Below the pieces are notes generated by a model that did not search any database, was not told the DNA's origin, and saw only the letters and a program-made list of their open reading frames with translations. The translations under genes and the position numbers were made by a program. Below, piece by piece: positions 21,557-22,341 of a stretch of DNA of 32,000 nucleotides. The DNA comes from an archaeon (GTDB taxonomy: Archaea > Iainarchaeota > Iainarchaeia > Iainarchaeales > 1-14-0-10-31-34), in NCBI GenBank assembly GCA_024277355.1, contig JAJRVL010000004.1, positions 270,001 to 302,000 on the forward strand. Direction: 5' to 3'. Within the stretch, counting starts at the first letter, position 1. Each line of letters begins with the position of its first letter.

Positions 21557-21913
21557 ATGGCTCAAATAATAAATTTCTTTATTCATATAATTACATTTCT
21601 CTTTATTTTAATTCCTTTATTTCTCCTGTATAGAATTAAATCCAAAGAATACTCAAAATTAATAGGAATAAAATCAAAAAATAAATTAATTAAATCCCTT
21701 AATCTTATTGTATTAGGATTTATTCCAATTGCATTAATTCATTTATTTGAAGCACTTTCAGTTTACGGAATTAATATACTTCCTCATGAAACCACTTTGT
21801 TTCATATGACTGCAGAACACCTTGCATTAATAATTGCATTTATTTCCATCAGCTTTTTTCTGCTTAAATTTGAACAGACTTTAACTGAATTAAAAGATGC
21901 TTTATGCAAATAA
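21557..21913 (+). CDS. small integral membrane protein
   Basis: 118 aa with 3-4 hydrophobic helices. Confidence 0.45.
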   Translation: MAQIINFFIHIITFLFILIPLFLLYRIKSKEYSKLIGIKSKNKLIKSLNLIVLGFIPIALIHLFEALSVYGINILPHETTLFHMTAEHLALIIAFISISFFLLKFEQTLTELKDALCK

Positions 21914-22131
21914 ACTTTTAGAAAAAAAAGCTTTATCAAAACAACTGTTTCGGCAGTTGAGTGCGATGCGCTATCTTTGATAGCGTTGCAATGAACTTTT
22001 CCAAAAAAAGCTTTACCAAAAACTTAAATTTTCTGTATTCCGTCACACAAACCTTTTTAGAAAAAAGGTTTATCAAAAATTAGTTTGCAAACACAAACTA
22101 AACCTTTTTGGAAAAAAGCTTTACCAAAAAC
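21911..22131. repeat. locus L2: four palindromic R units interleaved with a GC-rich core, a copy of the neighbouring gene's 3' end, and a palindromic 20-mer
   Basis: R units lie at about 21913-21942, 21993-22023, 22049-22080 and 22099-22131. Consensus is AAACCTTTTTAGAAAAAAGGTTTATCAAAAA, the reverse complement of the L1 units. Confidence 0.8.
21936..21992. ncRNA. candidate structured small RNA, paralog of the 5' half of the tRNA-Asn intron (strand unresolved)
   Basis: A GC-rich island in AT-rich spacer. Hairpins are CAACUG-UUUCGG-CAGUUG (21942-21959) and GCGCUAUC-UUU-GAUAGCGU (21968-21986). Stem and loop sizes and the 8-nt linker match intron hairpins 1 and 2. Confidence 0.3.
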
Positions 22132-22341
22132 TTAAATCTTTTGTATTCCGTCACACATAGGGAAAGCTTTGCATCCCCAAAAAGAACCAAATTTTCCTTT
22201 TCTAATAGTCATTTCAAGTTTACAGTTAGGACACTTTGGAGACTTAACTGAAACTTTTGAATGCCTTGAACAAACAGGAATATCATTTGAATTAAGTTTG
22301 GTTGCAAAAGAACCACATTTAGCACATTTCATAAAAATCAA
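22132..22341 (-). CDS. topoisomerase-type C4 zinc-finger domain protein
   Basis: Sequence MKCAKCGS...CPNCKLEMTIRKGKFGSFWGCKAFPMCDG (zf-C4_Topoisom pattern). The track start is TTG 22341; ATG 22332 is more likely. Confidence 0.7.
   Translation of the reverse strand: MIFMKCAKCGSFATKLNSNDIPVCSRHSKVSVKSPKCPNCKLEMTIRKGKFGSFWGCKAFPMCDGIQKI

Follow-up and report, generated by a model that had tools for sequence, protein, structure and literature searches.

Short palindromic repeats and a copied gene end between convergent genes of a DPANN archaeon, with possible template switching inside a repeat unit

REP/BIME repeats are short imperfect palindromes that occur in dozens of extragenic copies, often between convergent genes, with likely roles at transcript ends, and the Correia, SPRITE and Neisseria REP2 families are dispersed small repeats at gene borders that give promoter or terminator signals (PMC3184786). 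MITEs (miniature inverted-repeat transposable elements) have terminal inverted repeats of at least 10–15 bp and duplications of 2–10 bp (PMC11602168). Here we describe a family of 31-nt repeats, R, which by analogy appears to work most like the REP/BIME, Correia, SPRITE and REP2 repeats, and a mosaic of R units at positions 21911–22160 of a 32,000-nt stretch of archaeal DNA (hereafter the window; order Iainarchaeales, GenBank assembly GCA_024277355.1, contig JAJRVL010000004.1, positions 270,001–302,000 of the forward strand). The mosaic lies between two convergent genes and contains a second copy of the last 26 nt of one of them, a zinc-finger gene. We rate at even credence the reading that this copied gene end may have arisen by a template switch inside a pre-existing R unit, with a return 46 nt behind the point of departure. 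The host is a tiny DPANN archaeon with a streamlined genome and almost no spacer DNA, represented by a 1.13-Mb metagenome-assembled genome (MAG; 28% GC, 96% complete, 11 contigs) that is labeled G000 among the genomes compared.

In the minus-strand reading an R unit has two parts, the tag (TTTTTGATAAA) and, behind it, an A/T-rich hairpin of 10 bp whose loop has 3 nt; the conserved R tag is TTTTTGAT. A profile search of the genome found 59 R units in 43 clusters, about 50 of the units lying outside open reading frames (ORFs) in a genome that is ∼88% covered by ORFs. In a comparison of 93 distinct copies, drawn from three genome sets, tag conservation is 90–100%, and stem positions 9/31 and 12/28 covary, pairing being kept there through AT, CG, GC and TA. 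Like REP/BIME repeats, R combines an imperfect palindrome and a single-stranded, conserved tag; it has many copies outside genes, and its clusters are mosaics with other short motifs (R-H-R, core-R and arrays, H and core being companion hairpin modules). It differs from REP/BIME repeats in being archaeal and AT-rich, in the lack of a RAYT/Y1 protein in G000 and three other R-rich genomes, and in lying flush with tRNA ends, filling tRNA introns and occasionally showing long flank duplications. Like the Correia, SPRITE and REP2 repeats, R is dispersed, small and located at gene borders; Correia elements, however, belong to the MITEs and have two features that R lacks, a fixed TA duplication and terminal inverted repeats, and the function of R is deduced from its position. 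With MITEs at large R shares being small, non-coding, multi-copy and polymorphic between relatives, but it is built of a tag and one internal hairpin, the two R units of an R-H-R cassette are direct rather than inverted repeats, and it has no terminal inverted repeats, no fixed duplication and no partner transposase that we found. Palindromic elements of Rickettsia have reportedly inserted in frame into protein genes; R is likewise tolerated in coding sequence (26 in-frame codons with a 43-nt duplication in one gene), but it is five times shorter and mostly extragenic. R had no Rfam match, and full-text literature searches on repeats in DPANN tRNA introns and on archaeal MITEs that duplicate tRNA ends returned nothing specific and no description of an R-like family in DPANN archaea.

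The mosaic separates a 118-aa ORF from a 69-aa ORF, the zinc-finger gene. It holds four R units, located with a repeat finder and 74–100% identical to the reference copy, together with the small hairpin H, the GC-rich two-hairpin core and the second copy of the zinc-finger gene's last 26 nt. We refer to the gene's own last 26 nt as the tail and to the copy as tail′. In order of position, the features are:

21557–21913, plus strand: 118-aa membrane-protein ORF, whose stop codon and the hairpin end of R1 share 2 nt
21912–21942, minus strand: R1 (nhmmer, 21.4 bits), hairpin end flush with the stop of the 118-aa ORF
21943–21991, plus strand: GC-rich core, a two-hairpin module of a dispersed family
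21992–22022, minus strand: R2, whose 5′ 19 nt are those of R4 and whose 3′ arm is degenerate
22024–22049, minus strand: tail′, an orphan copy of the zinc-finger gene's last 26 nt (..CDGIQKI and stop) with 2 synonymous mismatches
22049–22079, minus strand: R3, consensus-like (nhmmer, 31.6 bits, the top score of the genome), second R of the putatively imported R-H-R cassette
22080–22099, no strand assigned: H, a small hairpin (AGTTTG..CAAACT) on the tag side of R units
22100–22130, minus strand: R4, chimeric, with a tag end that begins one base past the zinc-finger stop codon
22132–22341, minus strand: 69-aa zinc-ribbon gene (Zn_ribbon_Top1, PF01396), functional tail at 22132–22157

The preliminary description of this DNA, made from the sequence alone, had set out this layout from R1 to R4 with a copied gene tail, and every element of it proved correct against the repeat finder and the ORFs. 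It had also pointed to the near-exact recurrence of the zinc-finger gene's last 26 nt, which we find with 2 mismatches, both synonymous and at third codon positions; the number of such copies expected by chance is 0.00 (100 dinucleotide-preserving shuffles of the window). Tail and tail′ belong to a 54-nt direct repeat (21996–22049 and 22104–22157) that is 91% identical. The three comparisons that the preliminary description drew within the window hold as well. The ∼82 nt between the tails (R3-H-R4) are colinear with positions 5025–5110 of locus L1, upstream of tRNA-Ile (BLAST, 77% over 150 nt); R1–R4 on the minus strand have the orientation of the units before that tRNA; and the tRNA-Gln locus offers a parallel, its 5′ end being copied perfectly over 16 nt (4849–4864 against 4788–4803) on the two flanks of an R-like hairpin. 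These two loci are:

5025–5173, plus strand: locus L1, an R-H-R-R-R array whose last R ends 1 nt before tRNA-Ile(GAU) at 5175
4788–4864, minus strand: tRNA-Gln 5′ cassette, with pseudo 5′ end at 4849–4864, R-like hairpin at 4821–4848, inverted tRNA bases at 4804–4820 and real 5′ end at 4788–4803

The first 86 nt of L1 form an R-H-R cassette of the same kind as that in the mosaic, and R4-H-R3 is colinear also with a cassette of the relative G002. The tRNA-Gln cassette (4788–4869) includes an inverted copy of tRNA bases 6–15 and can pair into a long hairpin with the pseudo 5′ end.

Alignment of the tail and R4 with tail′ and R2 located the breakpoint of the duplicated block. Over the tail, the R tag and the 5′ arm there are 2 mismatches in 46 positions, and beyond them 6 in 12 (Fisher p = 5e-4). 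Within the R units themselves the 5′ 19 nt of R4 are identical to R2 (0/19 mismatches), the 3′ 12 nt differ from it at 6/12, and this 3′ half instead agrees at 10/12 positions with the L1-type cassette's first R. This split, together with the L1-like 3′ half, indicates that R4 is a chimera with its junction in the hairpin loop. What was duplicated is the tail with half an R unit (19 nt into R, ending in the loop), not the tail alone, and the end of the block in the R loop points to copy-choice at an R unit that was already there. R2 is taken to be the original R unit 3′ of the zinc-finger gene. The ancestral order would then have been zinc-finger tail, R2, core and R1, up to the stop of the 118-aa ORF; tail-R is still the order in the relative G005. 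Synthesis of the sense strand of the zinc-finger gene would stall in the hairpin loop of that R unit, switch by R-to-R homology into an R-H-R cassette elsewhere, and copy the remainder of that unit, H and the R behind it. It would then resume on the original template 46 nt behind its departure, re-copying the gene's last 26 nt and the first 19 nt of R, for a net gain of 108 nt and the arrangement tail-R4-H-R3-tail′-R2. Templated insertions of the type attributed to fork stalling and template switching or microhomology-mediated break-induced replication (FoSTeS/MMBIR) are known chiefly from eukaryotes and from quasi-palindrome mutagenesis of bacteria, and to our knowledge have not been described for an archaeal repeat family. 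The mosaic would resemble them in having an insertion similar to a cassette found elsewhere, a short-homology join and a variable duplication behind the point of departure, as read here from sequence.

The genome-wide catalog of R units and their flanks that the preliminary description had called for shows that the copied gene end is not unique. With R units masked, we scanned for ungapped direct repeats that straddle at least one unit with a score of at least 14, using 609 R-free intergenic sites as controls. Flank duplications were found at 7/43 R clusters and 7/609 controls (14-fold, odds ratio 17, p = 8e-6), with lengths of 16, 17, 17–26, 26, 30, 43 and ∼48 nt:

Duplication 1: the mosaic, zinc-finger gene end, 26 nt
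Duplication 2: tRNA-Gln 5′ end, 16 nt
Duplication 3: tRNA-Leu(GAG) 3′ end, 17–26 nt
Duplication 4: 3′ end of the 446-aa gene facing nac, 17 nt perfect, order tail-R-tail′-R
Duplication 5: 3′ end of an 886-aa gene, ∼48 nt, diverged
Duplication 6: intergenic, C2:59666, 30-mer
Duplication 7: inside a gene, around a lone R, C3:81153–81273, perfect 43-mer

At the last of these, insert and duplication together make 78 nt and add 26 in-frame codons to a conserved K/E-rich protein. The gene (C3:80962–81453; L059/L060) encodes 164 aa, with R read in frame (..GQQTFSKKFDQK..) between the two perfect 43-nt repeats; the orthologues in G004, G001 and G003 carry other translated R-like motifs at the same and other positions. 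Among the R loci of relatives, 5/37 clusters have flank repeats, including one in which a gene's start codon and first 12 codons are duplicated around two R units, and in G099, a member of another family, 0/22 R clusters have a flank duplication. Flank duplications thus go with R far beyond chance, yet they are facultative and variable in length. An obligatory target-site duplication was rejected on the G099 count. A T-run microhomology at the junction, considered as a universal feature, was seen at the mosaic and at C3:81196 and not at G002, tRNA-Gln or C7:18929, and is kept as a frequent feature.

The locus was compared among relatives, of which the same-genus genomes G001–G005 have a glycyl-tRNA synthetase (GlyRS) 76–83% identical to that of G000. 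By its GlyRS, G000 belongs to the Iainarchaeota/Diapherotrites, a DPANN group. The zinc-finger gene is kept in 6 relatives at 75–80% amino acid identity, and two neighbors served as synteny anchors:

22370–22441, minus strand: tRNA-Thr(CGU), upstream neighbor of the zinc-finger gene
22530–24023: GlyRS

The 3′ flank of the gene occurs in empty, single-R and R-H-R-plus-copy states. G001, G003, G004 and G018 have a T-run and no R; G005 has a single R directly past the stop codon; and G002 has tail, R, H, R and tail′, then an apparent decayed R, so that tail′ is absent in 5/6 relatives. In the GlyRS tree G000 falls outside the other five genomes and G002 pairs with G005, and under this topology the tail-R-H-R-tail′ arrangement common to G000 and G002 was gained either twice, or once with about three losses. 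Pseudo-tail and tail are alike within each genome. We did not accept this resemblance as proof of independent events, since the inherited pseudo-copy at tRNA-Gln also co-varies with its tRNA: the cassette is the same in G000, G004 and G001, with T in both copy and tRNA of G000 and C in those of G004 and G001, which shows that close direct repeats can be homogenized. At this second locus G002, G003 and G005 have clean empty sites. The nac-side and tRNA-Leu(GAG) duplications were found filled only in G000, and the convergent nac-side genes lie 0–11 nt apart in the relatives that keep the pair. The preliminary description had named two signs of a one-off tandem duplication, flanks never duplicated at R units elsewhere and a static arrangement in relatives; flanks are duplicated at 7/43 clusters and the sites are polymorphic.

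Beyond these loci, a pattern count over 121 genomes of the order found R in 8/8 genomes of the family, at 11–61 copies compared with 1–13 for a reversed control pattern, and a patchy distribution outside it. In one other genus the count runs from 0 (G066 and G118) to 42 (G099). G099 has GC-rich flanks, yet its units are the same AT-rich 31-mers. Many are identical and head-to-tail arrays are frequent; here too, units lie flush with stop codons and with one tRNA 5′ end. This is the behavior of a proliferating element, not that of a universal promoter or terminator.

The placement of R units with respect to genes is strongly polar. The hairpin end falls within −5 to +3 nt of a gene feature in 27/43 cases and the tag end in 1/42 (p = 7e-10). 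The 27 flush hairpin ends comprise 9 at stop codons, 6 at tRNA 5′ ends, 4 at tRNA 3′ ends, 7 at the ends of tRNA exon 1, which are the first bases of long introns, and 1 at an ORF start. Given hairpin ends flush with stop codons, tRNA ends and intron starts, the everyday role of R is likely transcription punctuation. T5–T8 runs stand on both strands of R right behind stop codons and tRNA 3′ ends, which suggests a predicted terminator of T-run and hairpin on both strands. At six tRNAs the hairpin end lies 0–2 nt from the 5′ end, placing the tag at about −32 to −22; the promoter profile of 650 ORFs is A-rich at −36 to −33 and T-rich at −31 to −27, which fits the tag region, and the tag is likely a TATA-like element at about −30 before some tRNAs. 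Leaderless tRNA genes of Nanoarchaeum equitans reportedly have box A promoters at a fixed distance. The tag likewise keeps a fixed distance to the mature 5′ end of its six tRNAs, but R precedes only these 6 of ∼40 tRNAs and stands, in mirror orientation, behind stop codons and 3′ ends as well. G000 has an RNase P RNA (111.7 bits against a gathering score of 84), so it is not a Nanoarchaeum-like system free of RNase P.

As for the introns, at least seven tRNA genes (Ser-GCU, Arg-UCU, Arg-CCU, Leu-UAA, Asn-GUU, Gly-GCC and Gly-CCC) have introns of 43–149 nt at position 37/38 that open with an R unit in the same orientation. The tRNA-Asn intron within the window (14469–14634) has GC-rich hairpins instead. 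A tRNA-Gln intron of ∼46 nt occurs in G001 (L099) and G005 (L100) and in none of G000, G002, G003 and G004, so this intron is polymorphic within one genus.

The searches made gave no enzyme that could mobilize R. Y1 transposase (PF01797) is absent from G000 and from the R-rich genomes G004, G001 and G099 and present only in G008, its presence not tracking R abundance in relatives. TnpB of the IS200/IS605 type, reverse transcriptase (PF00078) and PDDEXK_3 (the GxxExxY nuclease) are absent from G000, and links of R to REP/RAYT, IS200/IS605-TnpB, retroelements and GxxExxY nucleases were rejected on these absences. Repeated DNA of at least 400 bp at ≥95% identity consists in G000 of contig-end overlaps only, with no insertion sequence (IS)-like multi-copy DNA. 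No transposase was found in this genome, with the DDE families not searched one by one, and its only tyrosine recombinase is a lone 305-aa XerA-like gene (C9:105384) far from R clusters. Tested for likeness to a short interspersed nuclear element (SINE), R read in reverse has in several cases a terminal A5 that directly abuts the duplicated flank, and most copies have no duplication; it differs from SINE-like retroposons in that G000 has no reverse transcriptase. Of the earlier proposal of a small palindromic element that inserts at, or copies, gene termini, the dispersal, the gain and loss and the tie to termini are therefore borne out; the duplication is not a regular target-site duplication, and no transposase was found.

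A switch carried out by the replication or repair machinery only, free of any dedicated enzyme, would fit the absence of Y1 transposase, TnpB, reverse transcriptase, PDDEXK_3 and IS-like DNA. Template switching would also fit duplications that are facultative and vary in length, as well as the filler bases seen at times, and an occasional replication accident suits the 0/22 duplications in G099 better than insertion chemistry does. The data show the anatomy, the breakpoint, the R family and its gain and loss in relatives; the template switch itself is a step we infer. Several points weigh against it. The genome holds no near-identical donor cassette (best 77–83%). At C3:81196 the 43-nt perfect repeats surround a lone R with no pre-existing R unit, a case that would need microhomology only, and the junction T-run is not present in every duplication. 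The same architecture in G002 could be one old event kept alike by gene conversion; the co-variation of the tRNA-Gln pseudo-copy with its tRNA shows that concerted evolution does happen here. R in sense orientation in tRNA introns carries a T5 run, which would be awkward for efficient termination.

That R or R-H-R is a non-autonomous transposable element moved by an enzyme in trans, with the copied tail as its target-site duplication, would account for presence and absence at orthologous sites, the enrichment of flank duplications at R clusters, copy numbers patchy within one genus (0 to 42), the in-frame insertion in a coding region between 43-nt perfect repeats, and an AT-rich R unchanged in GC-rich G099. 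We nonetheless think it unlikely. There is no duplication at 36/43 clusters here or at 22/22 in G099, whose many identical copies are probably recent; the lengths of 16–48 nt contrast with the fixed 2–10 bp of MITEs (PMC11602168); R is without terminal inverted repeats; searches of G000 turned up neither a transposase nor TnpB, reverse transcriptase or IS-like DNA; and the duplicated block at the mosaic takes in half an R unit. If the duplication were instead a tandem one of purely local origin, slippage or unequal crossing-over between neighboring R units would have produced it, nothing would have come in from elsewhere, and the shared 82 nt would reflect general R-array similarity. The clean tail-R-tail′-R tandem of 62-nt period at C9:14385 and the R arrays of 31–33-nt period common in G099 speak for this reading. 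The order tail-R4-H-R3-tail′-R2-core, however, is unreachable by duplicating any single unit, H and core being single; R4 departs from R2 at 6/12 positions of its 3′ half, which matches the L1-type cassette; and the lone-R cases at C3:81196 and tRNA-Leu have no second R, so that we hold this explanation to be quite improbable.

It is very improbable, in our judgment, that R units are instead promoters of tiny RNA genes (H, tail′ and core), with the pseudo-tail kept because its transcript acts on the zinc-finger mRNA. R does carry a motif like the transcription factor B recognition element (BRE) and TATA box, the core is a conserved, covarying two-hairpin module, the stretch folds better than shuffles and both tail′ mismatches are synonymous. 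But payloads of 20–26 nt are shorter than the usual TATA-to-start distance, so that the next R would be reached with hardly anything transcribed; tail′ repeats the gene end in direct and not in antisense orientation, and is missing from most relatives; Rfam has no match; and two mismatches both fall at third positions by chance about 1 time in 9 (our own arithmetic). The claim in the preliminary description that each R is followed by a short payload needs the same qualification: the modules are there, but they are H, the core and a pseudo gene end, and are not like small-RNA genes. Archaeal integrases typically duplicate tRNA gene ends (SSV1 and pNOB8-type), and the direct repeats might accordingly be read as attachment-site scars of a tyrosine-recombinase element at gene and tRNA ends, later nearly all lost, a notion that the one tyrosine recombinase gene of G000 keeps in view. 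That gene is XerA-like and remote from every R cluster, however, the inserts are 31–108 nt long with neither ORFs nor cargo, duplications also occur at starts, ends and interiors of protein genes, and the breakpoint lies inside R, all of which makes this origin extremely doubtful. Although the genome is a MAG in 11 contigs, an assembly artefact in a repeat-rich spot is scarcely credible: the copies differ at 5/54 bases and are shorter than a read, the same architecture stands in the independently assembled G002, and the arrangement is consistent across seven loci.

The mosaic is made of R units and companion hairpins arranged as two abutting 3′-flank cassettes of the convergent genes. On the plus strand the order 118-aa ORF stop, R1, core, R2 follows a gene-end/R/core/R pattern that recurs at other genes and tRNAs, so that the left half is an ordinary 3′-flank cassette of the 118-aa ORF; the right half is the 3′ flank of the zinc-finger gene. 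The whole stretch folds better than shuffles (z = −3.1), with the core hairpins visible in the fold. R-H-R, core-R and R arrays each recur at several loci. H and its relatives lie on the R tag side at L1, C9:73050, C7:12250, C7:18960, C2:59640 and the zinc-finger flank of G002. G001, G004, G008 and G023 have the R-H-R cassette of ∼82 nt at many loci; here it stands upstream of tRNA-Ile, at C9:73050 and in the tRNA-Arg(UCU) intron. Other members of the core family are located at C2:314014, 126272, 108312, 230593, 130653 and 129310 and at C7:28424, directly past a stop codon or tRNA 3′ end and usually followed by an R unit, and core hairpin 1 covaries (AACTG/CAGTT and AACAG/CTGTT). Over 21.8–22.5 kb, only the tRNA passed the Rfam threshold, the remaining matches being sub-threshold and attributable to chance. 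Sequence inspection led us to reject the core as a tRNA anticodon arm (loop sizes unfit) and as a C/D-box RNA (box motifs unfit). In G099 a GC-rich two-hairpin module of ∼65 nt recurs directly on the tag side of identical R units (L119, L123 and L130), a second composite analogous to the core-R of G000.

Of the flanking genes, the 69-aa ORF ends in ...MCDGIQKI and encodes a topoisomerase-type C4 zinc ribbon (PF01396 at 40.3 bits against a cut-off of 32), and the 118-aa ORF has no Pfam match and a DNA-level homologue in the same-family genome G007. Between the DUF1616 gene and the zinc-finger gene, same-genus relatives have 1–4 kb with other, sometimes HAD-like, genes in between, and here there is only the 118-aa ORF and the mosaic (21463–22131, compared with G005:C89, G001:C49, G002:C60 and G003:C4), which places the mosaic at a variable spot of an otherwise conserved synteny. 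Elsewhere, GC-rich leaders and trailers with the mutually complementary words GTCGTGCA and TGCACGAC and small hairpins were noted at 22442–22530 and in the flanks of tRNA-Ser(GCU), Asn(GUU), Gly(CCC) and Leu(CAG), where the words might form processing stems around the tRNA. The contig-end pairs C9/C11, C2/C7 and C3/C9 overlap by ∼325–345 bp at 99.4% identity, and the assembly can probably be joined further at these three places.

Small structured repeats thus come and go precisely at the borders of genes even in a streamlined 1.1-Mb archaeal genome with near-zero spacer. With convergent genes 0–11 nt apart, a duplication of 16–48 nt will likely copy a gene end, and no dedicated mechanism is needed for this. 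R forms the body of several tRNA introns and stands at the expected sites of tRNA promoters and terminators, and so bears on the origin of archaeal introns and signals. We put forward only tentatively, as a possibility we ourselves regard as doubtful, that R is a self-propagating archaeal repeat with no transposase, which would spread through polymerase template switching at its own hairpin, supplying promoters and terminators, seeding long tRNA introns and adding codons, with the duplicated gene ends as its footprints. If true, an enzyme-free template switch would be a simple route for the spread of repeats in genomes from which all transposases have been lost.

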